A stretch of 64,000 bases of DNA. It comes from an uncultured Gemmatimonadaceae bacterium. Lineage in GTDB: Bacteria; Gemmatimonadota; Gemmatimonadetes; Gemmatimonadales; Gemmatimonadaceae. Shown here piece by piece: positions 1,845 to 60,769 of this stretch; the stretch's first letter is position 1; each line of letters begins with the position of its first letter. Location: assembly GCA_963829055.1 (NCBI GenBank), contig CAWHHI010000008.1, forward strand, positions 64,001-128,000, written 5' to 3'. A program made the translations under genes and the position numbers. A model generated the notes under the pieces. The model was given only the letters and a program-made list of their open reading frames with translations, ran no database searches and was not told where the DNA came from.

Positions 1845-2478
1845 TCACACGCGGCGACAACGCGCTAGCCGAGCAGCGAGCAGCAGGTTGTTGAGTATCC
1901 GCTCCGTCATGCCCCACACGACGTGACCCGCCGAGCGAATAGCTCGGGACGCGCCACGTCGTGCCGCGCGCGGTGACTTCGGATTCAACCGCCACCTCCG
2001 GATCGCCAAGTGAGGCGAGTGAGACCCAGAACGTCGACGCGACCTCGTCGCTGATCTCGATCGTGACGTCCGCGCGGACCACGGCGACGAACGGCGTGAC
2101 AATGATCGACGGCAACATCGCGGAGCGCGGCCGGAGCTCGTCGAGTGTGCCTAACACGAGACCGTCTCGCGCGAGATCGATCCCGGTCTCTTCGCGCGTC
2201 TCGCGGACGGCGGTGTCCTGCAGCGTGGCGTCGGTGGGGTCGTAGCGCCCGCCCGGCAGCGCGATGTGGCCGCTCCATGGGTCGTTCTCGCGCTCGGAGC
2301 GCTTGATCAGCAGCAGCTCCACGTCGCCCTCCGCCGTGTGCCTCAACACGATGGCAACCGCCGCTCGGCGTGGCGCGCCATCATCGGGCGCGAGCGCACC
2401 GGGACGCTCGGCCAGCACCCGACGCAGATGCTCGAAGCGTCGGATGATCGATGAGCGTCAGAGCGTCGTCACGCGCAT
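1845..2478 (-). CDS. Nudix hydrolase, CoA pyrophosphatase (NudL-like), frameshifted
   Basis: SGHIALPGGR...TAVRETREETG Nudix box; C-terminal VWGMTERIL in another frame. Confidence 0.85.
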
Positions 2479-2481
2479 CGC

Positions 2482-2847
2482 TCAATCCTCGACCGGGCCT
2501 CCGACCGCGATCCAGCCTCCGAACCCGTCGGCCATCGACGTCACGTCGGTGTAGCCCATCTGCTGCAGCGTGTCGGCCGCCAGCGCCGAGCGGTTCCCGC
2601 GCGCGCAGTAGATCACGATGGGCTGCGACGCGATCGACACGCGCTTCGATGTTCGACTCCAGGTTTCCGCGCGGGAGGTGCATCGCGTCAGGCAGGTGCC
2701 CGAGGTTCCATTCGTTAGGCTCGCGGACGTCGAGGTAGATGACGTTGGCGTTTCTGTTGTTGCATCTCCAGGACCTCCTGCGGCGTCAGCTCGCGGATGC
2801 GCTGCTTCGCCTCGGTGACGAGGTCCGTCTCCGGTCTTGTAGGTCAT
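2482..2847 (-). CDS. Rhodanese-like domain protein (frameshifted)
   Basis: IVIYCARGNRSALAADTLQQMGY...MADGFGGW; HLPRGNLE in an alternate frame. Confidence 0.85.
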   Translation of the reverse strand: MTYKTGDGPRHRGEAAHPRADAAGGPGDATTETPTSSTSTSASLTNGTSGTCLTRCTSRAETWSRTSKRVSIASQPIVIYCARGNRSALAADTLQQMGYTDVTSMADGFGGWIAVGGPVED

Positions 2848-3805
2848 GGGTTGCTCTCGATCAGGCGATCGTTAGGGTCGGCTGCACCGCCAGCGTGCGA
2901 CGGTCGGTATCCAACACGGCGGGGGCGCCAAGCGGGAGCGTCCACTGGTCGTCGATGTGGCCGATGGGGACGCCCGACATCGCCGGCACCGTCGAGCAGA
3001 TCTGCCACCTCGATGATGACATCATCGAGGCCGCGCGCTCCGTCGTCGGAGGCCTCTGGGCAGTTCGTGCACATCGCCGAACACGATGCCGCGGACGCCG
3101 TCGAGCAGCCCCGCGAGCAGCAATTGGCGCAGCATGCGGTCGACGCGATACACCGCCTCGCCGACGTCTTCGAGCACGAGGATCGTGTCATCGAGTCGTG
3201 GCGCGAACGGCGTGCCGGCCAGGGCGGCCAGGAGCGAGAGGTTCCCGCCCGCGAGTATTCCCTGCGCGCTCCCGCCGCGCAGCACACGCGCATCGGTCGC
3301 GACGCCACACGAGTCACCACCGTGAATGAGCGCGCAGGCGAGCGAGTCGCGCGAGAACGCCGACATCACCGCGCGCGCCGTCGGTCCGTGATACGTGACG
3401 AGCTCGCTCCGACGAGCGAATGCCGCATGCAGCGCTGTGATATCGGAGTACCCGATGATCGGTTTCGGTCGACGCGCCATTGCGTCGTAGTCGAGTGTGT
3501 CGAGAATGCGCATCGCGCCGTAGCCGCCACGCAGACACCACACCGCATCGATCGAATCGTCGGTGAGCGCATGATTGAGATCAGCCGCGCGTTGTGCATC
3601 CACGCCAGCGAAGTAGCCATCACGAGCGAGTGCGTGTTCGCCTACCACTGGTTCCCAACCAAACGAGCGCACGTTGTCGATGGCGCGCGCGAGGTCCGCA
3701 TCGCCACGCAATGGTCCCGCCGGCGCGACGAGCGCGACACGCGCGCCCTCGCTCAGCAGCGGAGGACGACGCGCGCGCAGAACCGCGGGGGTGCTCGTGT
3801 GTCAA
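2844..3805 (-). CDS. ldcA: LD-carboxypeptidase (peptidase S66), frameshifted
   Basis: CLRGGYG, GYSDITALH, GGNLSLL and LEDVGE motifs. Confidence 0.85.
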
Positions 3806-3911
3806 AGCGCTCCTTGGCACATGCGTTGCCACTGCCTCCTCCGCCTATGGTGCGGCAGACCGTTCCGCCGCACATGGAGGACGCAGTCAAAATATGCTGG
3901 AGGGTACTGCC

Positions 3912-4486
3912 ATGGCGGACCAGAACAAGAATCGTGGCTCGAGCGGCGGCAATCCGAATGACGACGAGAGCATGAAGGGCTCGTCAGGCTCGCAGCGCGG
4001 ATCGTCGGGTGGCTCATCAGGCGGCTCGTCAGGAGGGTCATCCGGCGGGTCATCTCGTGGGTCGCAGGGAGGCAGTGGCTCGGGCGCTGGCGGCTCCGGT
4101 GGCAGTGGCCAGTCCGAAGGCATGGGTGACGAAGATGACCTGACGGGTGGCACGGGCGGATCAGGTGGCACGTCGGGACGCGGCGGCTCGTCAGGCACAG
4201 GCGGAACGGGCGGCTCCGGCGGCGGCATGGGCGGCTCCGGGTCGGAAGTGGAAGCGGTGGTGGAACGGGAGGCAGCAGCGGAGCCGGCAGGAGCGGCACC
4301 GGCGGCAGTGGTTCCGGTGGAAGCAGCGGCGGTGGCATGGGCGGTAGTGGTGGCGGCACAGGCGGAAGCGGCGGCGGTGGATCGCAGCGTGGCGGATCAT
4401 CGGGCGGCTCCGGCGGATCTGGAACTGGCGGTTCCGGCGGATCGGGCAGCTCTGGTGGATCCGGTGGCTCGGGCGGCAACCGCTAA
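3912..4486 (+). CDS. Gly/Ser-rich low-complexity hypothetical protein (one frameshift near 4240)
   Basis: GGAGGG RBS before ATG 3912; GGSSGG/GGTGG repeats; TAA at 4484-4486 followed by a terminator. Confidence 0.65.
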
Positions 4487-4610: not shown

Positions 4611-5880
4611 ATGTCTCTCACTACCCGCGTTCTCATCGCGCTCGTCGCTGGCATTGGCGGGGGCGTCGCCATCGCGAGCAGTGGCTCCCCGCGTCTCGCC
4701 AGCGCCGCGCTCGCGATCGAGCCGCTCGGCACGCTGTGGATCAACGCCATCCGAATGACGGTGATTCCGCTGGTCGTCGGAAGTCTGATCGTCGGCATAA
4801 CGAGTGCGCCGAACGCGAGGTCCATCGGTCGCGTCGGTCGAGGGGCGATCGTGTTTTTCATCGTGACGCTGTTTGCCGCCGCTGCGTACGCGGCACTCCT
4901 CGCACCGCCGCTGATCAACCGAATTCCGCTCGATCCCGCCGCCATCGCGTCCATGAAGGCGAGCGCGTCGAGCGCGGGAACGACCGCGGCGCAGAACGCG
5001 ACGAATATTCCGACGTTCTCCCGGTGGCTCGTCGACCTGGTCCCGGCAAACCCGGTCAAGGCCGCAGCCGACGGCGCGCTTCTGCCGCTGATCATCTTCA
5101 CCCTGATGTTCGGGCTCGCGCTCCTTACGCTGCCGGCAGAGCGGAAAGTCGCCGGTGATCGCGTTCTTTCAGGGCCTTGGCGACGCGGCGTTGACCGTCG
5201 TGCGATGGGTGCTGCAGCTCGCACCGCTCGGCGTGTTCGCGCTCGCGCTCCCGCTCGCGACGCGCATGGGAGCGTCGGCCGCCGGCGCGCTCGCCGCGTT
5301 CGTCGTCACGGTCATTGGTATCACGGTCTCGTTCGCCGTCGTCGTCCTGTATCCACTCGCCGCCGTTGTCGGACGCGTGCCGTTAGGCGAGTTCGCGCGC
5401 GCGATCTTCGCCGCGCAGGCGGTCGCGTTCAGCTCGCGGTCGTCACTGGCGGCACTGCCCGCGATGATCGAGAGTGCTCGTTCCCGACTCGGACTTCCGC
5501 CAGAGATCTCCGGCTTCTTCCTCCCGCTCGCGGCGTCGACGTATCGCGTTGCGGGCGCGCTCGCGCAGCCGACCGCCGTGCTCTTCATCGCCCGGCTCTA
5601 CGGCGTCGAACTGACGGCCACGCAACTCATGACGGTCGTGCTGACCGTCGTGCCGACGACGTTCAGCGTCCCCGGCATTCCCGCTGGTTCGATCATCGTC
5701 ATGGTGCCGATCCTCATCGGCGCCGGCCTCCCCGCGGAAGGCATTGGCGTGCTGCTCGGCATCGACGCGATCACCGACATGTTTCGCACAGCCACCAATG
5801 TCACTGGCGACATGGTCGGTGCCGTCGTCCTCGGCCGGCGCGACCGCGTCGCGCGCCGCTCCAATGCGCGCCGTGAGTGA
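4611..5880 (+). CDS. Dicarboxylate/amino acid:cation symporter (GltP-like), frameshift near 5155
   Basis: Hydrophobic helices; AFSSRSSLAALP and DMFRTATNVTGD motifs. Confidence 0.9.
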
Positions 5881-7146
5881 AGCGACGCCCTAACGCGGAT
5901 CGGCGACGGCCGCGCGAATCGCGGTGCGGCTGATGGATCTCGCGCGGGACATCGCGGTGGCACTCGCCATCGCGTCGCCATGGATCGTCGTGCCCGTCGG
6001 TCACGATGTGGCGCATCCGCCGCTCGCGCGATCTGGCCGAGCTTCCGGCTGATCCGCCTCCCGATGCGCCGCTCGTTTCGGTGGTCATCCCGGCGCGCGA
6101 CGAGCGCCGCAACATTGAAGCGTGCCTGCGATCCGTCGCTCGACGCGTCGTATCCAGCGCTCGATGTGGTCGTTGTCGACGATCGCTCGAGCGACGGAAC
6201 GGGCGACGTCGTTCGAGCACTGAGCCGCGAGGACGCGCGTGTTCGACTCATCGAGAACCCGGAGCTGCCGGACGGTTGGTTCGGGAAGCCGTGGGCCTGC
6301 ACCACCGGGCGCCAACGCGGCGCAAGGGTGAGATCATCTGCTTCACGGACGCGGACGCCGTGCCACGGCACCAGCGCTCGTCGCGCGCGCCGTTCGGGAA
6401 ATGCAGGCGAACCGGCTGGACATGCTCTCCGTCGCCGGACGCCAGGAGCTCGGCAGCTTCTGGGAGCGCATCGTCCAGCCGCACGTGTTCTGGATGCTCG
6501 GCAGCTCGCTACGGTGGCACCGAGGCGGTCAACCGATCGCGCAAGGTCGAGGACAAGATCGCGAACGGTCAGTGCATATTCGTTAGGCGCGACGCGTACG
6601 AAGCCGTCGGCGGACACGGTGCCGTACGGGAGCACGTGGCCGAGGACGTCGCGCTGGCACAGCATCTGTTCGCGTCCGGAAAGCGCACGGCGCTGATCCT
6701 CGGCCACGACGAGCTCACGACGCGCATGTACACGTCGCTGCGCGAGATCATGGCGGGGTGGCGCAAGAACGTCTTCGCCGGCGGACGCGAGGCCATGCCG
6801 TTTGGGCGGCTCGGGCAGGTGATCTTCCCCGCCCTGCTGTTACTGATGCCGATCCTGACGCTCGCCCCGCCGCTCGTGCTCGCCGGTGCCGCGGTCGTCG
6901 GGGCACCGGCGCTCGCTCACGCTAGCCGCCGACAATCGCGGTCGCCGCGGAGCTCGCCACGTGGGCGGTCGTGTACCGCTGGATGGGCGTGCCGGTTCGC
7001 TACGCCCTGCTTTTCCCGTTAGGCGCCGCCGTGTTCGCGGTCATCGCGCTGCAGGCGATCGGCCGCGGATCACGGGTGGAATGGAAGGGGCGCGCCTACG
7101 TCACGCCCCCCCGGCGCACGGCTCGACGATCTCGCGCTTGACCTGA
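5873..7146 (+). CDS. Family 2 glycosyltransferase (CrtQ/HpnB-like), frameshifted
   Basis: VSVVIPARDE, DDRSSDGT, GWFGKPWAC, FTDADA, ANGQC, EDVALA and VEWKGR motifs across frames. Confidence 0.8.
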
Positions 7147-9550: not shown

Positions 9551-12500
9551 GTGCCGACTCTCCGAGCCGCCGCCGCGCTCCTCGCCGCCGCCACCGACAT
9601 CACCGCCCTCGGCGCCATTGCCGCTGCGGTGGGGTGTCACACCCCGCCCGCAGCCCTCGACGGCGCAGCGCGCAGCGCGCTCGGCATTCCTGAAGAGTGC
9701 TCGGTCGCGCACGTCGCGCGGGGCCCGGACACGCTGCGTGCCCTGTTACTCGACGTGAACGACGGACCTCCGATGCGGGAGGTCATCACGCAACTCGCCC
9801 GCCGGCTCTCCTCGCGAGCTCCTCACCTGCTCTGGCTCGCGATCGCCTGCCGTGACACGAGCTCGGAAGTGGCCATCGCCGCCTGGACGCCGGGCCGAGC
9901 GGCGCCGCGGGTCAGCGCGCTGGTGGTAGATCGAACGCACGTGGTGGACAGCGACGCGGAAACGCTGTGCGCTCTGGCAGCCGGAATGGAAGCGGTGGAT
10001 GTGCTCACGCATGCGCGCTGGGTCGCGGTGCTCGGACGCGAGGCGGTGACGCGTCGGTTCTACCGGACACTCGAACGCCTGGTTGGCGCGCTGGCGGACA
10101 ACGCCGTGGGCCGCGCGACACCCGATGTTCGTCGCGAGATCGCGCTGCTGTACGCATCGCGTCTGCTCTTCCTCTCCTTTCTCGAAGCCAAGGAATGGCT
10201 CGACGGCGACCGCTCGTTCCTGGCGCGCCGCTACGACGACTGCATGGGAGCGCGAGGCGGCTTCCAGCGCCGCGTGCTCGTCCCGTTGTTCTTCGGAACG
10301 TTGAACACTCCGGTCCGATCACGCGCGCCCACGGCCAGGTCGCTCGGCAGAATTCCCTTTCTCAATGGCGGATTGTTCGCGCGTTCGCCGCTCGAGCGCG
10401 CGCACTCGCAACTCGAGCTTCGCGATGAGGAGCTCGGTCGCTTTCTCTCCGAGCTGCTCGGGCACTACCGGTTCACGGCGCGCGAAGAAAGCGCCGACTG
10501 GTCAGAGGCGGCCGTCGATCCCGAGATGCTCGGTCGGGCATTCGAGTCGCTCATGGCCGGGCAGGACCGGCGCAATACGGGAGCGTTCTTCACGCCGCAC
10601 GAGCTCGTGACGCGCGTGACGGACGAGGCGCTGACGCACGCGCTCGGAGTCTCGACCGACGAGCTCAGTCTCGTTAGGCCCGCGGATCGCACGGCGACCG
10701 AAGGCGTTGTCGCGGACTTCCAGCGCGCGCACGACATCCGTGCGCGACTCGCGACGCTTCGCCTGCTCGACCCTGCCTGCGGTTCCGGCGCGTTCCTCGT
10801 CCACGCCCTGGAACGCATCGCGAACCTGCTCTCCACGCTCGGCGACCCGCGCCCCGAGGCCGGACCTGCGACGTGCGGTGCTCACGAGCTCCATCTTCGG
10901 AGTGGACATGAACCCCACGGCGGTGTGGCTATGCCAGCTCCGCCTCTGGCTGTCCATCGTCATCGAGAGCCCGGCGCGCGACCCAGCACACGTCGCGCCG
11001 CTGCCGAACCTCGACCGCCACGTGCGCGTCGGGGATGCCCTCGCTGGCGATGACGTCACGACGCGTTCGCATCGTCGGGACCTCGGACGATCGCGCGATT
11101 GCGTACGCGTTATGCACGCGCCGTCGGCGTTCGGAAGCGCACGCTCGCGCGAGCATTGGACCGCGCCGAACGCACCGCCGCGCTCGCGGTGCTCGACCGC
11201 ACGCATCACCGCCATCACCGAAATGCGGCGCGACATGATCGTCGCCGCGCGTGGACACGATCTGTTCGGCGAGCAGAGCCGTTCCACCCGCTGCCACGCG
11301 TTCGCTGCTTGCGGAGCTCAAGGTCCAGCTACGAGGCGCCCGCGCACGGCGGAAGTCGCTGTCGTCGGGCGGAGCGCTCCCCTTCTCCTTCGCCACGCAT
11401 TTCGCCGACGTCGTGAACGCCGGCGGGTTCGACGTCGTCGTCGGCAATCCGCCATGGGTCCGCGTGCACCGCATTCCGGAGGCGGCGCGCGAGGCGCTCC
11501 GCCGCGATTACGCGAGCTATCGCGGTGCGGCGTGGCGTGCCGGCGCCCTGGCGGCACGCGCCGGATTGGGATTCGCGGCGCAGGTCGATCTCGCGGCCCT
11601 GTTCGTCGAACGGTCGCTCGCGGTCGCGGCACCCGACGGTGTCGTCGCGCTACTCGTTCCGGCGAAGCTCTGGAGGTCGCTCGCCGGCGGCGGCGTCAGG
11701 CAGCTACTCGCGTCGGAGCATCGACTGCTCGCGCTCGAAGACTGGTCCGACGCGCCTTCGCTGTTCGACGCCGCCGTCTACCCCTCGTTGTGCGTCGTTA
11801 GGCGCGGCAAAGGCCGGACAGCCGACACGCTGGCGGAAACGCAGCATCACCGTGCACGCGTCTCGCGTTGCCGCGACGTGGGGCGTGCATGCGCGCGAGC
11901 TCGGCCTCGACGACACGCCGGGCGCTCCGTGGCTCATGCTCCCCCACCCGGCGCGGCGCGCGTTCGAGGCTGTGCGCGCCGCGGGCACACCGTTCGCCGC
12001 GTCGCCGTTCGGTCCGCCACTGCTGGGCGTGAAGTGCGGATGCAACGGCGCGTTCATCGTGGAGTCGCGGGGTGGAACTACCGTCGCGAGCGAGAACGGC
12101 GCTGTCGTCGACATCGAGCCGGAACTGCTTCGGCCGCTCGTCCGCGGCGAGCACGTCACACGCTGGCGCATCGATGTGAACGGCGAACGGCTCATCTGGA
12201 CACACGGCGCGGACGGCGTGCCGCTCGATCGCCTGCCACCGCGGACCGAGCGATGGATGCGAAGCTGGCGTCGGCGGCTGATGGCTCGCTCTGACGCTCG
12301 AACGAGCGCGCCGCTGGTGGACGCTGTTCCGAACCGAGGCCGCGTCGGGAAACGCGGCGCGCGTCGTCTGGGCGGACTTCGGACGCGCGCTCACGGCGGC
12401 GGTGCTGCTCCCAGGCGATCCAGCGGTGCCGCTCAACACGTGCTATGCGGTTCGCTGCACCGACCCGCGCGACGCGTTCGCGTTGGCCGTTGTACTCAAC

Positions 12501-12758: not shown

Positions 12759-15061
12759 CACACTGGCGGTGGGCGGACCCCACGGACGTGCGCTCGACCA
12801 TCGCAACCCTCGCGTTGCACGATCAGTCGGCAGACGCGCGCCTGGGTGAGATCGTCCTGCGCGAGCACCAGCGCGAAGCCGCGGGACGACTGCGACTCGC
12901 GATTGACCGCTACGGCGGCGCGCTGCTCGCCGACGAGGTCGGACTGGGCAAGACGTTCACGGCGCTCGCTGCCGCGCGCGACGCCGCGACGCTGCTCATC
13001 GTCGCTCCGGCATCGCTCGCCTCGATGTGGCGCACCGCGCTCGAGCGTTCTCACCTGCGCGGTGATTTCGTCTCGCTCGAGACGCTGAGTCACCGCGACG
13101 CGGTCGCGGAGCGCTACCACTTCGTCATCGTGGACGAGGCACATCACGCGCGCAATCCGCTCACGCGACGCTATGACCGCCTTGCGGCCATCACGCGCGA
13201 CGCTCGTGTCCTGCTGCTCTCGGCGACGCCGGTGCATAACGCGGTCAGGGATCTGCACGCGCTCCTCGCGCTGTTCCTCGGAGCGCGCGCGCAGCACCTG
13301 ACCCGCCTCGACCTCGCGTCATGCATCGTGCGGCGCAGTCGCGATGACATTCGAGATGACCAGACGCCGCATCGGGCGCCGCCCGTATGGTTGCCCGTCG
13401 ACGACTCGGCCGACGTCCTGCGCGCCATCGCCGGGATTCCCGCGCCGTGTCCGCCGAGCGACGGTGGCGACGGCGGAGCGCTCGTTGGACTGTCACTCGT
13501 TAGGGCGTGGGCTTCCACCGAAGCCGCGCTCCGATCGTCCCTGCGCCGTCGGATCGCGCGCGCGGACTCGCTCGCTGACGCGCTCGCGACGGGTCGTCAC
13601 CCCACACGCGCGGAGCTGCGCGCCTGGGTCGTGGGCGACGACGCCACACAGCTGGCGTTTCCCGAGCTCATGGCGCAATCGCTGGCGGCGAATGAGGCGA
13701 CGTTGCTCGAGGTCGTCCGCGCCCATGCCAGCGGAGCACGGCGCGCGCTCGCCGTCGTCAATGCCTCCGGCGGCGAGATCGACGACCGGCGGGCCGCACT
13801 CATTCGCGAGATCCGACGTCGCCACGCGGGTGAACGCATTGTCGTGTTCTCGCAGTTCGCGGACTCCGTGCACGTCGATGTTCGAGCGTCTTCGCGGCGA
13901 CGGGCGCGTCGCGGCGGTCACGGCCAACGGCGCGTGGGTCGCCGGCGGCTCGCTCAGCCGAGCGGAGGTACTGGCCCGGTTCGCCCCGACCGCGACCGGT
14001 GCAGGCCCGGCGCCGCGTGCCGAAATCGTCGAGCTCCTCATTGCCACAGACCTGTTGAGCGAAGGGCTGAATCTCCAGGATGCATTGGTCGTGGTGCACC
14101 TGGACTTGCCGTGGACCGCCGCGCGCCTAACGCAGCGAATGGGTCGCGTGTGGCGCATCGGGTCCGTGCACTCGCAGGTGCACGAGTACGCGCTCGCCCC
14201 GCCGGCGCCGGCCGAGGACGTGTTGCGGGTGACGCAGCTGTTGACGAGAAAGGCGGGCGACGCCTGCGCCGCGGTGGGCGAGGCGTTCACTCCATTGCTC
14301 GTCGCGCGAGCGGCTAGCAGGAGCGTCGCTCGTCAGCACGGAGGGCGCTCGCGCGCCAGAGGCGCTGCGGAAGCTTTGGCACCACTGGCTCGACGTCGCC
14401 CCGGCTGGCCATGACCAGACACGCGCACCGGCATGTGCAGACGCGGGCGAGGGGTACAGGTCGCTCGTCGCCGGAGTGCGCTCGTCCGTCGACGGTTGGA
14501 TCGCGGCAATCGATCGTGGCGGCGTTGTGGAGGTCGTTGCCGCGCGCACCGGCAGCGCCGCGACGAACGACCCAACGCTCGTACTCGGAGCTGGCGCGCA
14601 TGGCTCATGGCGCGGCGCGGGTGACGTCCCCGTCGCGGGCGGCCCGCGTGCTCGGCGAGATCAGTGCGTACCTGGATGCTACGCGCGCCGCGGCCGACGC
14701 TGGCGTGCTCGCAGTCGGGTCACGAACGCACGCCAGCGCTGCCGGCCGCATAGCGTCACTCGCGGCCTCGGCGCCCCCTCATCGACGGGTCGTCGTATCC
14801 CGGCTCGCTGCCGGTGCGCGTCGAACCATCCAGAGCGCGAGGTCGGCGGGTGCGGAGCGCTTGCTCGCGGCGCTGGTGTCGGCCGACGTGTCCGACAACG
14901 GAGATGCAGACGCCGGCGAAGCCTGGCTGGAACGCGTGATCGAGCTGGGCTCACCCGGCGCGCCTAACGTCGAGCCGTCGCCGGGCACCAGCGCGCCGGT
15001 TGTTCGGGCGGTGCTGCTCCTCGTCGGCGAACCGCGAGCGTCGCTGCCATTCCTCCAGTAG
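12755..15061 (+). CDS. SNF2-like superfamily 2 helicase/translocase; frameshifted
   Basis: [51 protein letters not shown] overlap with the methyltransferase stop. Confidence 0.85.
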
Positions 15062-15070
15062 CTTTCCCGC

Positions 15071-16442: not shown

Positions 16443-17267
16443 CTATGCACGCCATGGATTGCACGACGTTCGACGACCGGCTGGCCGACTACCTCGAAGG
16501 GGATCTCGCACCCGCCGATCGCCGGCAGGTCGAGGCGCACCTCGCGACGTGTGTTCGGTGCACGGCGCTCGTTCGCGATCTCGAGCGCATCCGCGCTGAC
16601 GCGAGCGAGCTGCCGGAGCTGACACCGTCGGCGGACCTGTGGAGCGGCATCGCTCGTCGTATCGACGCGCCCGTGGTTCCGCTGGTGCCGCGTGTCCACG
16701 CCTAACGTGACGACGCGCCGCCGGTTCGAGCGCCTGCGCACGGCGGCGATCGCGGCGGCACTGGTCGCCGTCACCGCCAGCGTGACGTACACCCTCACGG
16801 TCGCTCGGGATTCGGCCCGGTCCGGCGAATCCATTGCGGCGAACACGCAGCGGGGTCCGACACCCGACACGAACGTCGCGTCGTCCGTACGGGACGAAGC
16901 CCGCCGTGACACACTTCCGTCATCGAACGTTGGCCCGGCGCCCGAGTCGGTCGCGAGCACCAACCCGACTCGAGCCAGCGGGCGCGCCACGACGCAAGCC
17001 GTCCGGAATACGCCGGAGTCCGTGACGTACTCACGAGAGATCGATCGCCTGCGGACGATCTTCGCCCGCACACGCTCGCAGCTCGATCCGCGGACGGCGG
17101 CGATCATCGAAGCGAACCTGAAGGTGATCGACGACGCCATTGCGCAGAGCGAGGCTGCGCTGGCGCAGGATCCGGCGAGTCGGTTCCTCAGCGATCAGTT
17201 GAACAGTGCACTCGACAAGAAGCTCGAGCTCCTGCGGACAGCAGCGCTGCTGCCGAACCGCACCTAA
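16439..17267 (+). CDS. Zinc-finger (ZAS) anti-sigma factor, frameshift near 16700
   Basis: HLATCVRC (HxxxCxxC) followed by a transmembrane helix; ATGA overlap with sigma. Confidence 0.8.
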
Positions 17268-17273
17268 CGGGAA

Positions 17274-18221
17274 ATGACACGCATGAGAACGTCCCTGCTC
17301 CTGGCCGCGATCGCGGTCGTCGCCCTGCCCCCCTGTATAGTCGGGGCGCAGAGCAATCGCGACCGCGAGCGCGAACGTGAGGAGCCGCAAGATGTACAAT
17401 CGCGCATCGATACGACGTTCACGTTCAGCCGCACGGGCGTCGTGGACCTCACGCAGGTCTCGGGCGACGTCATTGTCACCGCGTGGGACCGCGGCGAAGC
17501 GCGCATCCGCGCCTACGCCGAGCGTGGACGCATTCGCTCCAGCCTGTCGTCGTCGCGCCTAACGCTGGAGATCGAGTCGGTCCGCGGGCGTGTCGGGGAC
17601 TCGCGCTTCGAGGTGTCCGTTCCCGTCGGCGTCCGCGTCCTCGCGCGCAGTACGTCCGGCGATGTCACCGTGAAAGGCACGAAGGGTCCGGTGGACGCCC
17701 GGTCCACGAGCGGCGACGTCACGGTAACGGAGGCAACCGATCGCGTCGTGATCGAGTCGGTGTCCGGCGACGTGCACGCCTCACAACTCACCGGCGAGGT
17801 CCGGAGCGAATCGGTCAGCGGCACGATCGAGATCCGCAACGCCAGCGGCGAGGTCCGCGCCGAGACCACGAGTGGCGACGTGTCGCTGCTCGGGGTTACC
17901 TCGCGCAGCGTATTCGCGACGACCGTGAGCGGCGAGGTCGAGTACGACGGCACCATCGACGCGAACGGACGCTACGAGTTCCACTCGCATTCGGGCGACA
18001 TCCGGCTGGAAATTCCGGAGAGCTCGGGGGCGCAGTTCACGGTCGAGACGTTCAGTGGATCGCTCGATACCGAGTTCAAACTCACCCTGCAGCCAGGACA
18101 GCGCTCCACCGGACGTCCTCGGCGCTTCGAATTCACGCTCGGGAACGGCAGTGCGCGCGTCACCGCGGAATCATTCAGCGGCGACGTCATTCTCGCACGG
18201 CGCGCCGGCTCTAGTCGCTGA
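17274..18221 (+). CDS. DUF4097 beta-strand repeat exported protein
   Basis: Signal peptide; repeated SxSGDV units. Confidence 0.85.
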   Translation: MTRMRTSLLLAAIAVVALPPCIVGAQSNRDREREREEPQDVQSRIDTTFTFSRTGVVDLTQVSGDVIVTAWDRGEARIRAYAERGRIRSSLSSSRLTLEIESVRGRVGDSRFEVSVPVGVRVLARSTSGDVTVKGTKGPVDARSTSGDVTVTEATDRVVIESVSGDVHASQLTGEVRSESVSGTIEIRNASGEVRAETTSGDVSLLGVTSRSVFATTVSGEVEYDGTIDANGRYEFHSHSGDIRLEIPESSGAQFTVETFSGSLDTEFKLTLQPGQRSTGRPRRFEFTLGNGSARVTAESFSGDVILARRAGSSR

Positions 18222-35803: not shown

Positions 35804-35886
35804 GCCCTCGACACAACCGGCGACGCCATGATGACGTCGCCGGGTCTTGCTTCCAACATCGTTAGGCGGTCAGACACCGGGCATTG

Positions 35887-43459: not shown

Positions 43460-43481
43460 GCGAAACCGAACGCCGGCGTGC

Positions 43482-49293: not shown

Positions 49294-50700
49294 TCAACAC
49301 CCTCGCTTCGCCTGCCAGGTCAGCTCGTTCTCCGCGTCGTTGAGCAGCAGTCGGTTCACCCACTCGACGCCCTGCGCCACCGAGTGGTCCATGTTTCCGA
49401 CCTCATAGCGCCACGAGCCGAACCGACCGCGCGAGTGAATGCCTTTCGCCTCGAGCCACGGCTGTACCGCCTTGAGCGCCTCGTCGCGCTCGAGCGACGG
49501 AGTCGGGTAGGTGTAGTCACGCTCGATGAGATGGGCGTCGACGATGTCCCGCTTGTCCGCCTCGGAGATCATGCGCGTGTTGACGAGTCCCTGAATCGTC
49601 TCGTCGACGATGGTGCGCCTGTCCACCGGCTTGAACTCCGAGTGCGAGATCTCGGCGAGCAGCGAGTAGTGTGTCGCCGGATCAGGCACGACATCGGGTG
49701 AATAGTTCGACAGGTACGTGAGCCGGTAGAACGGGCAGTTGTCCTCGGGGAAATACATCCAGCACTTGTTCGACGGCGAGGGCTGCTTGATCCCCACGCC
49801 GACGATGTACGATCCCGAGTGACGGAGCCGCGCCGCCTGCGTGCGCACGCAATCGGGGACGTCGCCGGTCATGGACTTGACCAGGATGTCGAGCGGAATC
49901 GTGGACAGCAGCACATCGAACGGCTCACGACCACCGTCCGCCAACACGACCTCGCGGCGATCCGCATCCACCGACACGACCGGCGCGCAGAGCCGGAGAT
50001 TCTCCTCCACGTACGGCCGCATTCGCTCGAAGAGCTCACCGGTACCGCCGACGCGTGGGTACTTGAATGTCGCGTTAGGTCCCCACGAGACATCTTCGCG
50101 ATCGAGCACCACGTTGCCGAGCACGCGCTCGATCGGCGGAGTAGCGACGCGCTCGCCGATCCATTCCTTGTTCATCATCCGCGGCGGGTGCGCCCAGACC
50201 TTGAAGTTGTAGGGCATCATGAAGTGCTTCGCGATGCCAACGCCGAACACGCCGCGAATCAGCTCCTCGAAGTTCGCGAACTGATTCTTGTCGATCGGCT
50301 GCTTCTGCGCCTCGATGAGTCCGAGGAGACACTCCAGCACCACTTCCTTCGGCAGGAACTTGATGTTGTTCTGGAACGGATAGGGGAGGAAGCGATCGAA
50401 CATCCACACCCACGACTCGCGTAGCAGTTCCTGGTACTCGTCACCCATCAGCTTGTCGAACAGTCGATCGAAGTACTCGTAGTGCGAGAACAGAACGTGA
50501 CCGCCGATGTCGTAGATGAATCCGTTGGGGCTTCGCTCCGACGACGCCAGACCGCCGACCTTGTAGCGACTCTCGAGCATCGTGAAGTTCGTGTAGCCGA
50601 GCTCGCGCAGCCGGTATCCGGCTGCGAGTCCCGTCGGCCCTGCACCGATGATGACGATCTTTGGTCCGTCGGCGGTCGTACTCGTCTCGATCTGCGTCAT
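49294..50700 (-). CDS. FAD oxidoreductase, eukaryote-type UDP-galactopyranose mutase-like
   Basis: GAGPTG, DIGGHVLFSHY, PYPFQNNI, PYNFKVWA, WGPNATF and RGRFGSWRYEVGNMDHS. Confidence 0.8.
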   Translation of the reverse strand: MTQIETSTTADGPKIVIIGAGPTGLAAGYRLRELGYTNFTMLESRYKVGGLASSERSPNGFIYDIGGHVLFSHYEYFDRLFDKLMGDEYQELLRESWVWMFDRFLPYPFQNNIKFLPKEVVLECLLGLIEAQKQPIDKNQFANFEELIRGVFGVGIAKHFMMPYNFKVWAHPPRMMNKEWIGERVATPPIERVLGNVVLDREDVSWGPNATFKYPRVGGTGELFERMRPYVEENLRLCAPVVSVDADRREVVLADGGREPFDVLLSTIPLDILVKSMTGDVPDCVRTQAARLRHSGSYIVGVGIKQPSPSNKCWMYFPEDNCPFYRLTYLSNYSPDVVPDPATHYSLLAEISHSEFKPVDRRTIVDETIQGLVNTRMISEADKRDIVDAHLIERDYTYPTPSLERDEALKAVQPWLEAKGIHSRGRFGSWRYEVGNMDHSVAQGVEWVNRLLLNDAENELTWQAKRGC

Positions 50701-53021: not shown

Positions 53022-53024
53022 GCG

Positions 53025-54326
53025 TTAGGCGCGAGTCGCCGCGCCCTCCCCTTTCGAGCCGGAGCGCACGGCCGCGGACCCGCCGCTGGCCTGCGTGGCG
53101 CTCGTAGCACTAACGCTGGCGGCAGTCGCCCGACGCCCCTGCGTCGCTTCCTTGGCCGCTGACCAGGGCCGCCGTGCCTGCACCGCGGTGGTCATGAGGC
53201 GATCCATGGCCGTGACGATGGACTCCCACGACGAGCGCCGGGCACACGCCACGCCCGCTTCGATCCGTTCGGGATCCGGGGCAATGGCGGCGCGAGCTTC
53301 GTGAATGAACCCGTCGGTGGAATCGGCGACGCGAACGATGGGAGTGAAGTTACGAACAACGTCAGGCACCGCCGTCGACACGATGGGCTTTCCCGCCGCC
53401 ATGTACTCCAGCGTCTTCGTCGGGTTGATGAACTCCGTCGCCTCGTTGAGGGCGAACGGCATCAGACACACATCGAACGCCTTCACATAACGCGGGAGAT
53501 CGGCGTACGCGCGCTGGCCAAGCCAGTGGAGGTTCGGGCGTTGCGGCAGATCGCGAGGATCCACCTTGACGACCGGGCCCACGACGACCACCGAGCCGTC
53601 CGGGAAGGCGTCAGCGAGCCGGCCAAGGAGCTCGTAGTCCAGTCGCTCATCAACCACGCCGAAATATCCGAGCACCGGCTGCGGCAGATCCGCGAGCTCA
53701 GGTGGCACCGGCGTCTCCGGGTTGCGCGCGAGACCGAAGTGGCGCGCATCCACGCCGCACCCGAAGAAGTGCACGTTCTCGTGGTGCTTCGCCTTGGACT
53801 GGTACAGCTGATAACCCCCAGTGAAGACGACGTCCGCTGCCGACATGAGCTGGCGCTCGCGCACGCCAAGATCCGGCGGCGCAAAGCGGAACTGCGCCAA
53901 CTCATCCATGCAGTCGTAGACGACGGCGCACTCACCAAGCGCACCGAGCATCGTGCGCGCAGGCATCGGCGTGTAGAACCACTGGACGGCGTCGTCGAAC
54001 GTTCCGGCGAGCTGACCACCCTCGCCTAACAACTCGACGAGCAGTGTGCGCACGGCCGCCGCGGCGTCATCGTACGAGGCGCGCAGATCACCGGGCAGCC
54101 TCGGAATGACGCGATACACACCGGGCGTCGGCTGCGAGACGTCGAGCGAGCCTGCGGCGATGTCATCGGCGAAAACCGGCTCCTCGACGTAGAGCACGGG
54201 ACGGCTGCGGCCGAAGCGCGACAGAATCTGCTGTGGGCGCTGCCACACAAAATCCCAGCGCAGATGGCTGTGGACGATCAACGGATGACGGCCGTCGTTG
54301 ACGGCCGTGCGCGCAACGGATGCCAT
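53025..54326 (-). CDS. GT-B glycosyltransferase (GT4-like)
   Basis: HLRWDFVWQRPQ, YDCMDEL and NPTKTLEYMAAGKP motifs. Confidence 0.88.
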   Translation of the reverse strand: MASVARTAVNDGRHPLIVHSHLRWDFVWQRPQQILSRFGRSRPVLYVEEPVFADDIAAGSLDVSQPTPGVYRVIPRLPGDLRASYDDAAAAVRTLLVELLGEGGQLAGTFDDAVQWFYTPMPARTMLGALGECAVVYDCMDELAQFRFAPPDLGVRERQLMSAADVVFTGGYQLYQSKAKHHENVHFFGCGVDARHFGLARNPETPVPPELADLPQPVLGYFGVVDERLDYELLGRLADAFPDGSVVVVGPVVKVDPRDLPQRPNLHWLGQRAYADLPRYVKAFDVCLMPFALNEATEFINPTKTLEYMAAGKPIVSTAVPDVVRNFTPIVRVADSTDGFIHEARAAIAPDPERIEAGVACARRSSWESIVTAMDRLMTTAVQARRPWSAAKEATQGRRATAASVSATSATQASGGSAAVRSGSKGEGAATRA

Positions 54327-54517
54327 GCTCAAATCGGGGCGAGTGGTGGTGTTCGGCGACGTGCTGGCGAGCGCCGCCCAATGGGCAAATCATATGCCCC
54401 ACTCGTCCGATTTTCGCGTTGATGGGATGATCTGTTTGCCTAACGAGCGAGAGCCAAAGCGCTAACGCTTTGGCTCCCAATTAGATCCGGAATTGCAGGT
54501 GACTGGTCGCGAAATGA

Positions 54518-55723: not shown

Positions 55724-55940
55724 CTCTGAATGCGACGGAAAAACGGCCGGAAGTGGTCGTCGGCGTGGACTCGGTGAGCGCGAAGCTCAGCTGCACACGC
55801 GGCGATCGAGGAATGGTACCGCAGCGACGACGAACGACGACCACCGACGTAACTAAGCCAAAGGCCAACTTGTTAGGCGTGGTCCGGCTCGCCACCCCAG
55901 GCGAGCCGGGCTCTGCCTTGGGCTTCTCACACTGCCCGCC

Positions 55941-57227
55941 TCAACGGCCGTATTTCTTCATGATCGTTTTCAGTCGATCTACCGGCAGCGCGTAGACACG
56001 GAGGTCGTTCGCGCCGGTCATCGTCTCCGCGGCCAGCAACGCGTTGACGATTGCCTCCTCGGTTGCCTGCGCGGTTGCCGTGAACAGCGGGGTGATCTTC
56101 GCGTTCGCGAGCATCTTGACGCTGGCGGTATCTGCCGCCCCCGCCGCACCCGCGTTCGCGGTCGAGAACGCCACGAAGATGTCGCCCGACGAATTTCCAC
56201 CCCATCCCCCCATCCGCCCGACGCCGAGCGAGATGCGCGTCGCCATGCGCTTGAGCTGATGCGGCAGCAGGGGCGCGTCGGTAGCCAGGACGACGATGAT
56301 CGACCCGGCGCCGTCTTCATCGTTGCGGCCCGGCGTTGGTGCGTCACAGGGGCGGCGCTGCCCAGGTCCGCCCTGCGCGGGAACCGGGTCATGATTCGCG
56401 ATACACGCCGCGAGATCGGGGATCTCTTCACCGACCGGGACGCCGGCGATTCTCAGGTCGCGCCGAGCGCCATAGTTGCACTGCACGAGCACGCCTACGG
56501 TGTAGCCGCCCTGCTCCGGCGGGAGTTTTCGTGATGCCGTACCGATCCCACCCTTGAAGCCGTGGCACACCATCCCGGTGCCGCCGCCGACGGCACCCTC
56601 CTGTACCGGACCGCCGCGCGCACCATCCAGCGCGCTGAATACATGCTCCGGCTTCACGTGAAAGCCGTTGATGTCGTTCAACCCGCCGTCATACGTCTCG
56701 GCGACGACAGGTAGCCCCCACGGCTGCATCCCCGGCTTGCCGACCTGCCACTGCAGAATCGCGTCGCGCACCACACCCACGCTGTGCGTGTTCGTGATCG
56801 CGATGGGTCCTTCGAGAATCCCGGATTCCTGCAGCCATGTAGTCCCGGTCATCTCGCCGTTCCCATTCAGCGTGAACCACGCGCCGAATACGGGGTCGGG
56901 GTTTGCCTTCCCCCGCGGATGGATGACCGTGACGCCGGTTCGAATCGGACCCTTCCCCACTACGAGCTTGCCACTGCCCGAGATCAGCGTGGTGTGGCCG
57001 ACTTCGATTCCCGCGACGTCAGTGATCGCGTCGAGCGCCCCCGCAGTCCCGCCGATTGGCAGCCCGAGATCGCGGGCGCGCGGCTTCGCCGGCGTCTGCG
57101 CGCCGAGCGACGCACCCACCACGAGTGCCACGACGGCCGCGCACGCCAGTCGGTCGAGATTCCGTGTCGGCGTGCGCGCGTCGACAGCGCACGGCTGTCG
57201 ACGCTCCCGTGAAACGTTAGGCATCAT
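55941..57227 (-). CDS. P1/DmpA family aminopeptidase (peptidase S58), exported
   Basis: LNGNGEMTG, FKGGIGTASR, GSIIVVLATDAP and SSGD motifs. Confidence 0.9.
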   Translation of the reverse strand: MMPNVSRERRQPCAVDARTPTRNLDRLACAAVVALVVGASLGAQTPAKPRARDLGLPIGGTAGALDAITDVAGIEVGHTTLISGSGKLVVGKGPIRTGVTVIHPRGKANPDPVFGAWFTLNGNGEMTGTTWLQESGILEGPIAITNTHSVGVVRDAILQWQVGKPGMQPWGLPVVAETYDGGLNDINGFHVKPEHVFSALDGARGGPVQEGAVGGGTGMVCHGFKGGIGTASRKLPPEQGGYTVGVLVQCNYGARRDLRIAGVPVGEEIPDLAACIANHDPVPAQGGPGQRRPCDAPTPGRNDEDGAGSIIVVLATDAPLLPHQLKRMATRISLGVGRMGGWGGNSSGDIFVAFSTANAGAAGAADTASVKMLANAKITPLFTATAQATEEAIVNALLAAETMTGANDLRVYALPVDRLKTIMKKYGR

Positions 57228-57309: not shown

Positions 57310-58663
57310 CTAGCTGACCGACTTGATCACGTCGGCCAGCGTTCCGACCAATTCGTCGATCTGTCGCTTCTCGATGATCAGCGGCGGAGAGAGCGCGATG
57401 ATGTCTCCCGTCACACGAATCAGCGCACCGCGGTTGAAACACTCGATGAACACGTCGAACCCGCGCGCGCCCGGTGCGGCAGCGCGCGGCTCGAGCTCGA
57501 ATGCCGCCCACGAGTCCGAGGTTCCGGATGTCGATCACGTGCGGCAGGCCACGCAGCGAGTGCAGCGCGTTTTCCCAGTACGGTGCCAGCGACGCCGCGC
57601 GCTCGAACAGCCCTTCCGTCCGATACAACTCGAGCGTTGCGAGACCAGCCGCCGCCGCCAGCGGATGTCCGGAGTACGTATAGCCGTGAAACAGCTCGAT
57701 GCCAGTTGGCGCCGAGTTCACGACCGTATCGTAGATGCCGTGACGAACGAACACGGCGCCCATCGGGACGGCGGCATTCGTTAGGCCCTTCGCCACCGTC
57801 ATCAGGTCGGGAACCACGCCGAAGTAATCCGCCGCGAACGGTGTACCCAACCGGCCGAAGCCGGTGATGACTTCGTCGAAAATGAGCAGGATCCCGTGGC
57901 GATCACAGATGCCGCGGAGCCGCTCGAGATATCCCTTCGGAGGAATCAGCACGCCCGTGGATCCCGCCATCGGCTCGACGATCACCGCCGCAATCGTGTC
58001 CGCGCCGCGCTCCCGAACGATACGCTCGAGATCATCCGCGAGCTCCGCACCGTGAGCCGGCACGCCGCGCGAGAACGCGTTGCGCGCGAGGTCGTGCGTA
58101 TGCGGCATGTGGTCCACCTGCGGGAGCAACTGTGCCGCATAGGCGCGCTTGTTGGGCTCGATGCCGCCGACCGAGATCCCCCCGAATCCTACGCCGTGAT
58201 ATCCGCGGAGCCGTCCGACAAACCGCGTGCGCTGCGGCTCCCCCTTCGACTGGAAATACGCCAGCGCAATCTTGAGCGCCGAGTCGACCGCTTCCGAACC
58301 AGAGTTCGAGAAGAAGACGTGATCCAGGTCGCCCGGCAGCATCTGCGCGACCCGCTCGGCGAGTGCGAAGCTGTACGGATGCCCCATCTGAAAGCCAGGC
58401 GCGAAGTCCAGCGTCGCCGCGGCTTCCTGCACCGCGCGCACGATCGGCTCACGGCAGTGGCCTGCGTTCACGCACCACAGTCCCGCCGTGCCGTCGAGCA
58501 CCTGACGGCCATCGACCGACGTGTAGTACATGCCGTTGGCCGATGCGAGCATTCGCGGCGCGCGCTTGAACGCACGGTTCGCCGTGAACGGCATCCAGAG
58601 CTCCTCGAGTGATGGCTCGGAAGCGATTGCGCTGGCGATGGAGGCAGTCTCAGTCATGGTCAT
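57310..58663 (-). CDS. Class III omega-amino acid:pyruvate aminotransferase, frameshift near 57500
   Basis: LWMPFTANR, GLWCVNAGH, FDEVITGFGR, AKGLT and HGYTYSGHP motifs. Confidence 0.92.
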
Positions 58664-58726
58664 GTCCTTCTCGTAGGTTCGTCGTGTCCGTGCCATCGAG
58701 CAACGGCTATTGAACGCGATTGAACG

Positions 58727-59479
58727 CTATTCCGGTCCATCTCCCCCGCCTAACACGGGGTTCCCTTCCGCTTCACGATCATCCGCAAGCTCGGCCTCGC
58801 GCTCGGCCGCCGCAATCGCGTCGCGCTCCGCCTTGTATCGCTCGTACCACGCGCGAGTGACCTCGCCCGCGAGCTCCCGGTTGCCGAGTCCGAACGAGAG
58901 CGCGAGTGCAAGCGCGACTGCGCCGAACAGAATCGCGAACGCGGTGACGACGATCTCGTTGGCGATGCCCAGTTGCTGCAGCGCCATGAAGATCGCGAGC
59001 AGTATCACACCCCAGCGTCCTACACGCGCGAGTGTGGGCCCACCTTGAATGGCTCCGGCGGAGGCCAGAATCAATCCACCCACGAATCTTCCGAGCACGA
59101 TGCCGACGATGAGCAGGACGATCGCCGCCATCATGCTCGGGATGTAACCGACCAGCTCCGAGAACACGTCGGCGAGCGTTTCCATTCCCAGCGCGTTCGC
59201 GGCAACCATAATCACCACGAACATCACGAACCAGAAGACCAGGTTCGCGATCACGCGAGAGGGATTGAAGTGCGATCCCGATCGCTCCACGGCTTGCATG
59301 ACGCCGCCGCGCTCGAGGAAATAGTTCAGCCGCATGCGGCGGAAGAGACGTTCCGTTCCGCGTTCGATGAGCTTCGCCAGGAGATACCCGGCGAACAGGA
59401 TGATGAGCGCGCCGAAGAGCGCGGGGACGAATTCGGCGAACTGGGCGAAGCTGCTTTGCAGTCGCTCCAGAAAAGTCAT
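58727..59479 (-). CDS. Mechanosensitive-channel-related TM helix protein (CmpX-like)
   Basis: Repeated TM helices; ALQQLGIA...ALALSFGLG. Confidence 0.75.
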   Translation of the reverse strand: MTFLERLQSSFAQFAEFVPALFGALIILFAGYLLAKLIERGTERLFRRMRLNYFLERGGVMQAVERSGSHFNPSRVIANLVFWFVMFVVIMVAANALGMETLADVFSELVGYIPSMMAAIVLLIVGIVLGRFVGGLILASAGAIQGGPTLARVGRWGVILLAIFMALQQLGIANEIVVTAFAILFGAVALALALSFGLGNRELAGEVTRAWYERYKAERDAIAAAEREAELADDREAEGNPVLGGGDGPE

Positions 59480-59501
59480 GCGGAAGCTCCGGGTCGGTCC
59501 C

Positions 59502-59729
59502 TCAGTTTCTCGTGCCTCGTTTCACATCGAAGATGGCGCTCCGATGGCATTTCGGGCAGATGAGCCACTCACGTCGTCGCGCGTACCCAAGCCCAAACGA
59601 CCCGCCGCCAATGGTCCGAGCGGAGAGCGCCACCGTGCACCGCGGGCAGTGAGCCGAGTGGCCGGCCGCAACAGCTTCGCGGATCTCTCGCTGTTCTTCG
59701 ACCGTGAACTGCGCCTGATCTCCGGTCAC
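59502..59729 (-). CDS. Small zinc-ribbon protein (75 aa)
   Basis: CPRC...CPKC; GTG start overlaps the upstream TGA. Confidence 0.7.
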   Translation of the reverse strand: MTGDQAQFTVEEQREIREAVAAGHSAHCPRCTVALSARTIGGGSFGLGYARRREWLICPKCHRSAIFDVKRGTRN

Positions 59730-60769
59730 CGGTCCGCCACCCGCACCACGACCTTGCCGAACTGCTGTCCCGATTGGAGCCGCTCGAACGCCTCCCGCCC
59801 CTTCTCGAGCGGGAATTCCGAGTCGATCGGCGGTTGCAACCGCCCCTCCCGAAGCTCCGCGACGATCGCCTCGAACTCGTCGTCGCTGCCCATCGTCGAA
59901 CCCATCAGGGTCCACTGATTCCAGAACATTCTCCGGACGTCGGTCTGCACCAGTGGGCCGGACGTGCCGCCGCAGGTGACGAGCCGGCCGCGCTTCCCGA
60001 GCGACCCGAGCGACGAGGCCCACGTCGCCTCCCCGACGCAATCGATGACGACATCCACACCGCGCTTCCCCGTTCGCGCGCGGACCTCCTTCCCGACATC
60101 GTGTGTCGTATGGTTGATGAGCTCATCGGCGCCTAACACGGCCGCGCGGGCCAGCTTGGCGTCGCTGCTCGATGTCACCCATACGCGCGCGCCGAGGTAC
60201 TTGGAGATCTGCAGCGCGGCAAGTGCGACACCGCCACCGATGCCTTGAATGAGCACCTGGTCGCTCGGGCGAACATTCGCGCGCGACACCACCATGCGCC
60301 ACGCCGTCAGCGTCGCCAACGGAAACGCTGCCGCAACCGACAAATCGACGGTCGGTGGAATCGGCAGCACGTTCGCCACTGGAACGACGACGAACTCCGC
60401 CAACGAACCCGGCCGGTGCTCGCCGAGAATGCTGTAGCGAAGGCAGAGCGGATTGTCGCCGGTGCGGCAATACTCGCAGGTGCGGTCGCTCACCCCCGGA
60501 TTGAGCACGACGCGATCACCCGGCCGAACCGACGTCACTCCGGGCCCCACCGCGTCGACGACGCCAGCGCAATCCGAGCCGAGAATCCAGCCGGGAGATA
60601 TGCGAACCCCGGGTACGCCGCGAACCACCCAGAGGTCGAGATGATTCAGCGCCGCCGCATGCACACGAACCCGCACATCGTCGGGCGACGTGATCTCGGG
60701 TGCAGGGATGTCGTCGCGAAACTTGAGTTGATCGAGTTGGCCGTGCGCATCGATCGTCAGCGCTCGCAC
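59726..60769 (-). CDS. Zinc-binding alcohol dehydrogenase/quinone oxidoreductase (MDR family)
   Basis: [17 protein letters not shown] and FGKVVV motifs. Confidence 0.9.

Follow-up and report, generated by a model that had tools for sequence, protein, structure and literature searches.

An over-represented asymmetric octamer in soil Gemmatimonadaceae as a possible DNA-uptake or self-recognition sequence

Hyper-abundant short words have, to our knowledge, been described in no more than three groups of bacteria, as the DNA uptake sequence (DUS) of Neisseriaceae, the uptake signal sequence (USS) of Pasteurellaceae and the highly iterated palindrome 1 (HIP1) of cyanobacteria, and the protein that reads the word is still unknown for USS and HIP1. 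Such words bear on the discrimination of self from foreign DNA and on chromosome organisation. Here we describe a fourth case, asymmetric and in a different phylum: the octamer CGTTAGGC of an uncultured Gemmatimonadaceae bacterium, in which a 64,000-nucleotide stretch (GCA_963829055.1, contig CAWHHI010000008.1, here C8, positions 64001-128000; hereafter the window) had been flagged in an initial annotation as dense in a motif that might be a lineage-specific uptake signal, a nucleoid-protein site or a modification target. Most likely the octamer labels the DNA as 'self' for a DNA-binding protein that recognises it, and this protein may belong to the DNA-uptake machinery.

CGTTAGGC resembles DUS in occurring about once per kb, on both strands, without replichore bias and inside genes; as here, DUS sites are reported to be conserved in permissive surroundings and to be non-randomly spaced (PMC2397512, which also reports a spacing that matches conversion-tract size), with a family-level distribution of variant 'dialects' (PMC3630211). 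It differs from DUS in its length (8 bp with a 6-bp core, against 10–12 bp), in lacking a ComP_DUS homologue in the octamer-rich genomes searched, in having almost no inverted terminator pairs and in its distribution, only roughly one in four of the family's sampled genomes having it. With USS it shares a short, asymmetric core whose positions matter to differing degrees (PMC2817400, PMC3458573), a mostly coding placement in several frames with recoded peptides, and an even spacing (PMC1939737), although CGTTAGGC has no AT-rich flanking tracts and belongs to another phylum. HIP1 (GCGATCGC) is likewise an octamer found in and between genes, with conserved sites and with variant words in some lineages (PMC5861425), but it is palindromic, whereas CGTTAGGC is not its own reverse complement and showed no link to methyltransferases (families PF01555, PF02384, PF00145 and D12).

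Abundance, profile and placement of CGTTAGGC

The window contains 29 matches to CGTTAGGC (16 on the + strand and 13 on the −), against a mean of 0.97 (standard deviation 0.95, largest 3) in 100 dinucleotide-preserving shuffles, and 41 matches to the core GTTAGG against 5.3 expected. The base 5′ of the core was C in 36 cases and T in 5, and the base 3′ of it was C in 34, G in 4 and T in 3. GTTAGGC lay 17 times on each strand, and only three of the 44 TTAGG/CCTAA pentamers, at 1794, 19174 and 44713, fell outside the GTTAGG context. The counts, core positions, flanking bases, 17:17 balance and three stray pentamers of the initial annotation were each reproduced exactly.

The excess extends to the whole source genome (7,784,024 bases in 20 contigs, 66.6% G+C, 86% complete), which carries 5004 copies (2547 on + and 2457 on −) distributed over all 20 contigs at 0.48–0.80 per kb, or about one per 1.5 kb. 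Expected counts were 131 under an order-1 Markov model, 257 under order 3 and 60 under order 3 with the motif masked, while five synonymous-codon shuffles that kept proteins and codon usage gave 91–116 copies against 3118 observed in predicted genes (called with a crude, simple gene caller that assigned 71% of the genome as coding). Under both the order-1 and order-3 nulls CGTTAGGC was the most over-represented 8-mer, far ahead of any other; a maximal-order Markov null says nothing on this excess either way, because the motif dominates its own sub-words. The hyper-abundance of CGTTAGGC is confirmed as real: the genome-wide count that had been proposed as a check upholds the excess against Markov and synonymous-codon nulls alike, and the claim that its density is of the same order as those of Neisseria DUS and Pasteurellaceae USS stands, at 5004 copies in 7.78 Mb.

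The word extends over exactly 8 bp, with almost no information in the flanking sequence. In the source genome, words that differ from it by one letter at core position 1, 4 or 6 were unenriched (observed/expected 0.4–1.1), whereas those that differ at the outer positions were enriched (TGTTAGGC 17-fold, CGTTAGGT 21-fold and CGTTAGGG 14-fold); CGTTATGC was enriched 9-fold. The octamer combines a strict GTTAGG core with soft flanks (a pyrimidine before; C, then T, then G in order of preference after), a graded profile as expected of recognition by a DNA-binding protein. No strongly depleted neighbour word was found among its one-off variants in this genome, the lowest observed/expected values (0.38–0.40) being those of CGTTAGTC and CGTTAGAC.

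All four non-stop frames through the motif were occupied, on both strands, giving x-Leu-Gly in 819 copies, Pro-Asn in 511, Leu-Thr in 329 and Val-Arg in 240. The stop frames were open on both sides of the motif in only 3 and 7 copies; in 99 (TAG) and 101 (TAA on the other strand) the coding signal was confined to one side, as at gene ends. The motif took 46% of the synonymous contexts for Pro-Asn-[VADEG], 22% of those for [SPTA]-Leu-Gly, 20% of those for [SRCG]-Leu-Thr and 11% of those for Val-Arg, and 47% of all TTA codons in the genome fall within it. Relative to predicted genes, 1840 of the 5004 copies were on the same strand, 1625 on the opposite strand and 1539 intergenic, with a similar density inside and between genes. 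A protein or RNA motif is out as a reading, given that copies occur in every non-stop frame and in either orientation relative to genes; the motif is kept at the level of double-stranded DNA, independently of genes and of replication direction, and is held at a density, not at fixed regulatory places.

Copies showed no strand polarity. In the source genome 51% lay on the G-rich strand as judged by GC skew, 51.9% of neighbouring copies shared an orientation, and the two arms around the skew switch of contig C16 had 58.7% and 47.2% of copies on the + strand; orientation was also mixed in six other motif-rich genomes. All-plus runs seen in genomes of g55 proved to be an effect of listing order, with no real polarity.

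Close pairs (<200 bp) were strongly depleted and the spacing was over-dispersed, with 71 gaps below 100 bp against 316 expected, 144 of 100–200 bp against 296, and 2776 of 500–2000 bp against 2246. Apart from this short-gap deficit the spacing was near-exponential (median 1101 against 1060 expected). Three stretches of 31–50 kb at contig ends (C6:5440-55037, C11:1-46789 and C6:591808-623330) contain no copy at all, against a mean gap of 1.5 kb, and hold fragmented housekeeping genes, including those for FtsK, DAHP synthase, peptidase M17 and a second chorismate synthase broken into two parts; their probable origin is either chimeric assembly or contamination by DNA of a motif-poor organism. 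For work with metagenome-assembled genomes, CGTTAGGC provides a sharp marker with which to bin contigs and detect chimeric joins.

Conservation between species was sampled at six same-genus loci around gyrA with 76–80% DNA identity, a small sample of interrelated genomes, in which the other genome had the identical word at 21 of 36 source-genome sites, as compared with 18.6% for aligned 8-mers overall. Of the 47 sites found in at least one of the two genomes, 21 (45%) were shared, while flanking 8-mers were kept in 7–13% of cases (28% at +8), so that the word appears, from these alignments, to be kept amid surroundings more variable than average. At unshared sites, 15 of 26 pairs had at least three mismatches among the eight letters, which may be caused by synonymous-codon preferences. 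The gyrA gene itself (window 46556-49168, − strand; 870 aa, PF00521 and PF03989) has zero copies in the source genome, while four same-genus records carry the motif at GyrA residue 240, and in each of three motif-rich clades a different gyrA site is conserved, at residue 162, 240 or 403. Sites are therefore stable within clades and separately gained or turned over between them.

Distribution among genomes and candidate reader genes

The lineage is represented by soil metagenome-assembled genomes of Gemmatimonadaceae. Taking as motif-rich those with a count at least three times that of the reversed-word control (a hand count of the survey table), about 68 of the 251 Gemmatimonadaceae genomes were rich, and these belonged to several separate clades and 21 of 77 genera; counts were bimodal, the remaining genomes having mostly 3–40 copies, below their control of about 100–400. 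Counts ranged up to the 7821 copies of G205, in 6.1 Mb; G014 has 6360 in 5.1 Mb, and G057, a complete genome of 7.5 Mb in 4 contigs, has 4469. All seven genomes of the source genus carry the motif (2501–5112 copies in the other six), and in genus g56, where six species were sampled, G124 stands at 66 copies and the other five at 3244–4141; such on/off distribution among close relatives, with a motif-poor species in a motif-rich genus, offers a natural comparative experiment for the reader protein. None of 119 genomes from eleven other families of the phylum reached three times the control, the highest (G371) standing at 2.5 times. In a GyrA tree with 66 rows, each assigned to a class from the motif density of up to 22 kb around the gene (10-kb flanks were used, 3.5-kb GyrA loci being too short to classify genomes by motif count), the rich state was clustered and required at least 4–5 changes.

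Variant words dominate or accompany the octamer in some genomes: G010 has 925 copies of CGTTTGGC, 605 of CGTTAGGC and 236 of CGTTATGC, and G030, from another family of the order, has 315 of CGTTATGC (reversed control 30) and 345 of CGTTAGGC. No comparable hyper-abundant rival word was found in samples of the motif-poor genomes G007, G012 and G018. The top words of motif-poor G124 and G033 were heptamer tandem repeats, (CTGCTTT)n at loci L179-L188 and (CGCTTCC)n at loci L189-L198 respectively, and were not dispersed. In motif-poor genomes of another family the octamer occurred in same-strand runs spaced about 500–650 bp (Table 1), which suggests a repeated domain of giant repetitive genes, unlike the dispersed motif.

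Competence genes are present in the source genome. It has open frames for ComEC (719 aa; present in 31 of 31 relatives) and DprA (351 aa), a ComEA-like HHH_3 gene (L289:1223-1987) split over several frames, and a PilQ/O/N/M cluster that adjoins three N-methyl pilin genes, with a fourth N-methyl pilin gene on another contig. We contrasted 20 motif-rich with 20 motif-poor genomes chosen from the 251-genome survey. ComEA-like HHH_3 genes occurred in 20/20 of each class, and two pilus-cluster proteins of unassigned function were present in 5/5 genomes tested, rich and poor, one of them matching G033 weakly and in part. The very short patch (VSP) repair enzyme Vsr occurred in 4/20 motif-rich and 8/20 motif-poor genomes and was not found in the source genome. 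Methyltransferases of families PF01555, PF02384 and PF00145 had no match in the source genome, Eco57I-type and other families not having been searched; the only DNA methyltransferase detected there is of D12 type, just outside the window (C8:134570-135647; L295:654-1785) and split by a frameshift, and its relatives occurred in 5/20 motif-rich and 10/20 motif-poor genomes. Integron integrases over the TIGR02249 cut-off were found in 13/20 and 15/20, respectively; their presence in 28 of these 40 Gemmatimonadaceae genomes, including the source genome (C20:208041-208958), seems unusually common. Weak matches to the ComP_DUS-type pilin family (PF16732), searched in 31 genomes, occurred only in motif-poor genomes or G030. 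As trackers of the motif, ComP, Vsr, the integron integrase, the D12 methyltransferase, ComEC, the ComEA-like genes and the two pilus-cluster proteins were all rejected. Since the competence genes are equally present in motif-poor relatives, no gene found accounts for possession of the motif.

Possible roles of the octamer

Because its properties match those of DUS and USS best, we rank first, if only tentatively, a role for CGTTAGGC as an uptake or self-recognition sequence of the DUS/USS type. A sequence-specific protein would read the word as double-stranded DNA, regardless of genes, transcription and replication direction, and drive or selection on word density would hold it at about one copy per 0.8–3 kb. 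The most likely reader would be the natural-transformation machinery (type IV pilus, ComEA-like protein, ComEC and DprA): fragments with CGTTAGGC would be preferentially bound and imported, and homologous recombination would then copy the word into recipients, by which it would spread and be preserved like neisserial DUS and pasteurellacean USS. We infer both uptake as the reading step and the identity of the receptor protein. Abundance, symmetry, frame independence, graded specificity, short-range exclusion, site conservation, clade restriction together with variant words, and the competence genes present in the source genome speak for this role, as do the motif-free stretches of 31–50 kb, which look foreign. 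Should CGTTAGGC prove to be an uptake mark, it would point to selective natural transformation within a dominant lineage of soil bacteria; in abundant soil bacteria, homologous recombination is reported to be common (PMC7305173).

Several points weigh against an uptake role. The motif-rich state is polyphyletic on the GyrA tree; ComEC, the ComEA-like genes and the two pilus-cluster proteins also occur in motif-poor relatives; and the ComEA-like gene of the source genome is split, which may be an assembly error, because the assembly has many such breaks. PF16732 had no match in the eight motif-rich genomes (G000, the source genome, to G006, and G014) of the 31 searched. Inverted DUS pairs form terminators in Neisseria, whereas opposite-orientation adjacent pairs of CGTTAGGC within 60 bp are rare (13 among 4984 gaps). 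Natural transformation of Gemmatimonadota is undocumented in the literature searched, and HIP1 shows that hyper-abundance is possible without a known uptake role. In the same literature neither CGTTAGGC nor GCCTAACG was found, no description of the motif was found, and no paper mentioned DNA uptake sequences and gemmatimonads together; of the three papers that contain the 7-mers, none concerns Gemmatimonadota or a genome-wide motif and one deals with the recombination sites of integrons. GCCTAAC occurs in an integron paper (PMC12901181), and PMC2843746 mentions neither Gemmatimonas nor uptake. With slightly less assurance again, we conjecture that this may be the first uptake or self-recognition system outside the Proteobacteria, in which a subset of the soil Gemmatimonadaceae, which are abundant and mostly uncultured, tags its DNA with CGTTAGGC and imports it selectively through a receptor unrelated to ComP, and in which gains, losses and specificity shifts of that receptor (to CGTTTGGC and CGTTATGC) define exchange groups among genera.

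The strongest competitor, which we consider somewhat unlikely, is an intracellular site like HIP1, where an abundant nucleoid-associated or chromosome-organising protein, or a repair factor, binds the octamer and selection keeps it at a roughly even density. Such a site fits the hyper-abundance, the symmetry and the independence of reading frame, as well as the conservation of sites and the softness of the flanks; a complex that wraps or bridges DNA could leave a footprint to match the exclusion within about 200 bp, and competence genes do not tell motif-rich from motif-poor genomes. HIP1 itself is reported to be 15–300-fold over-represented, with conserved sites and a proposed structural role (PMC5861425), and a periodicity of 10–90 kb has been reported for it. 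No candidate protein was found, however, the function of HIP1 itself is unproven, the near-exponential spacing beyond the short-gap deficit gives no long-range regularity, and an essential nucleoid site is hard to square with its lack in most genera of the family and in G124 of g56. A methyltransferase, restriction-modification system or VSP-type biased repair that enriches its own recognition word is improbable. Type IIG and Type III enzymes typically recognise non-palindromic words, VSP repair skews related words in E. coli, and HIP1 has been linked to methyltransferases; yet the source genome has no match to PF01555, PF02384, PF00145 or Vsr, neither Vsr nor D12 enzymes are commoner among motif-rich genomes, the graded enrichment of flank variants misfits all-or-none enzyme recognition, and no neighbour word is strongly depleted. 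Of the interpretation in the initial annotation, lineage specificity stands, the motif being confined to a subset of Gemmatimonadaceae, as does the exclusion of Chi- and KOPS-like signals by the skew check it had proposed; the modification-target option has lost support, and its uptake and nucleoid-site options are inseparable on sequence evidence.

The integron core-site consensus is GTTRRRY, which GTTAGGC and its complement fit letter for letter, so that copies could be attC halves or secondary integron-integrase sites. Integrase genes abound in the family, a few RYYYAAC...GTTRRRY pairs with spacings of 84–133 bp lie near the integrase gene of the source genome, and CGTTATGC is a secondary enriched variant. 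This reading is nonetheless largely refuted, and we regard it as very improbable: integrases do not track the motif, most copies lie in frame within conserved core genes, and attC pairing is out, with GTTRRRY 45–150 nt downstream of 296 of 5628 GCCTAAC sites against 255 for the upstream control and no arrays. Chi and the FtsK-orienting polar sequences (KOPS, also architecture imparting sequences, AIMS) are, like CGTTAGGC, over-represented 8-mers across the chromosome, here on all contigs, but they show a strong skew with replication direction and are only few-fold over-represented; the lack of skew in CGTTAGGC, which is 20–80-fold over-represented, already refutes a polar signal for RecBCD/AddAB or FtsK. 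Also refuted already is an artefact, whether a systematic long-read error at a modified site or an assembly error. The source genome is an assembly of 20 contigs with many apparent frameshifts (about 7–9% of 300-nt coding windows change frame, mostly +1, and several genes are split), but the six other, motif-rich members of the genus are assembled in 260–1170 contigs, few-contig and many-contig assemblies occur among both motif-rich and motif-poor genomes, and sites are conserved at orthologous positions. The platform artefact that had been raised as a concern fails in particular on same-genus records (GyrA 91–94% identical to that of the window) with MEGAHIT- or SPAdes-style names, which carry 0.2–0.7 copies per kb in 14–22 kb around gyrA; their contig names (k141_, k101_ and NODE_) are presumably those of short-read assemblers. 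Motif-linked frameshifts are out as well, the frame-change rate at the motif (131 of +1 and 57 of −1 among 2097 same-strand coding windows) equalling that at control words and at random sites (128 and 46 among 2457).

Sites in the window and a second repeat

The copies in the window are collected in Table 1. A second repeat, with core TGTCATTCCGAGCG, occurs in the window at 35043 (+) and 54103 (−) and has 934 copies genome-wide; 73% of these are intergenic, at times in tandem or within an inverted repeat, and the element looks like a repetitive extragenic palindromic sequence. Words related to TGTCATTCCGAGCG also rank top in the sample of G007.

Table 1 All 41 octamers with a GTTAGG core in the window (pattern matches; 1-based window coordinates), followed by the same-strand octamer runs in motif-poor genomes of another family (contig coordinates)
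Octamer	Position	Strand	Remark
variant TGTTAGGC	2149..2156	-	inside predicted gene, same strand
CGTTAGGC	2713..2720	+	match
variant CGTTAGGG	2870..2877	+	match
CGTTAGGC	5381..5388	+	in gene, same strand
variant CGTTAGGG	5888..5895	-	match
CGTTAGGC	6581..6588	+	match
CGTTAGGC	7017..7024	+	motif TAG is the end of open reading frame (ORF) 6636-7022
CGTTAGGC	10672..10679	+	in gene 9551-11053, read x-Leu-Gly
CGTTAGGC	11796..11803	+	match
variant CGTTAGGG	13498..13505	+	match
CGTTAGGC	14125..14132	-	in gene, opposite strand
CGTTAGGC	14962..14969	-	match
CGTTAGGC	16700..16707	-	match
variant CGTTAGGT	17262..17269	-	match
CGTTAGGC	17557..17564	-	match
CGTTAGGC	20408..20415	-	match
variant CGTTAGGG	27377..27384	-	match
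variant CGTTAGGT	27616..27623	-	match
CGTTAGGC	30876..30883	+	match
CGTTAGGC	32549..32556	-	match
CGTTAGGC	34128..34135	-	match
CGTTAGGC	35798..35805	+	motif TAG is the end of ORF 35165-35803
CGTTAGGC	35860..35867	+	match
CGTTAGGC	37799..37806	-	match
CGTTAGGC	38832..38839	-	in GAF histidine-kinase gene
CGTTAGGC	39753..39760	-	in GAF histidine-kinase gene
CGTTAGGC	40523..40530	+	match
CGTTAGGC	40844..40851	-	kept at orthologous place in locus L002 (G001)
CGTTAGGC	42141..42148	+	in peptidase M1 gene, opposite strand
CGTTAGGC	42958..42965	+	match
CGTTAGGC	43216..43223	+	match
CGTTAGGC	43480..43487	-	kept in loci L002 (G001) and L003/L006 (G003)
variant CGTTAGGT	50073..50080	+	match
CGTTAGGC	53023..53030	+	opposite-strand TAA is the end of ORF 53025-54281 (-)
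variant TGTTAGGC	54024..54031	-	match
CGTTAGGC	54438..54445	-	match
variant TGTTAGGC	55871..55878	+	match
CGTTAGGC	57215..57222	+	match
CGTTAGGC	57779..57786	+	match
variant TGTTAGGC	58748..58755	-	match
variant TGTTAGGC	60131..60138	-	match
same-strand octamer runs	G021:C95:188-23656; G021:C80; G019:C3:996-4708; G313:C12, C23, C27

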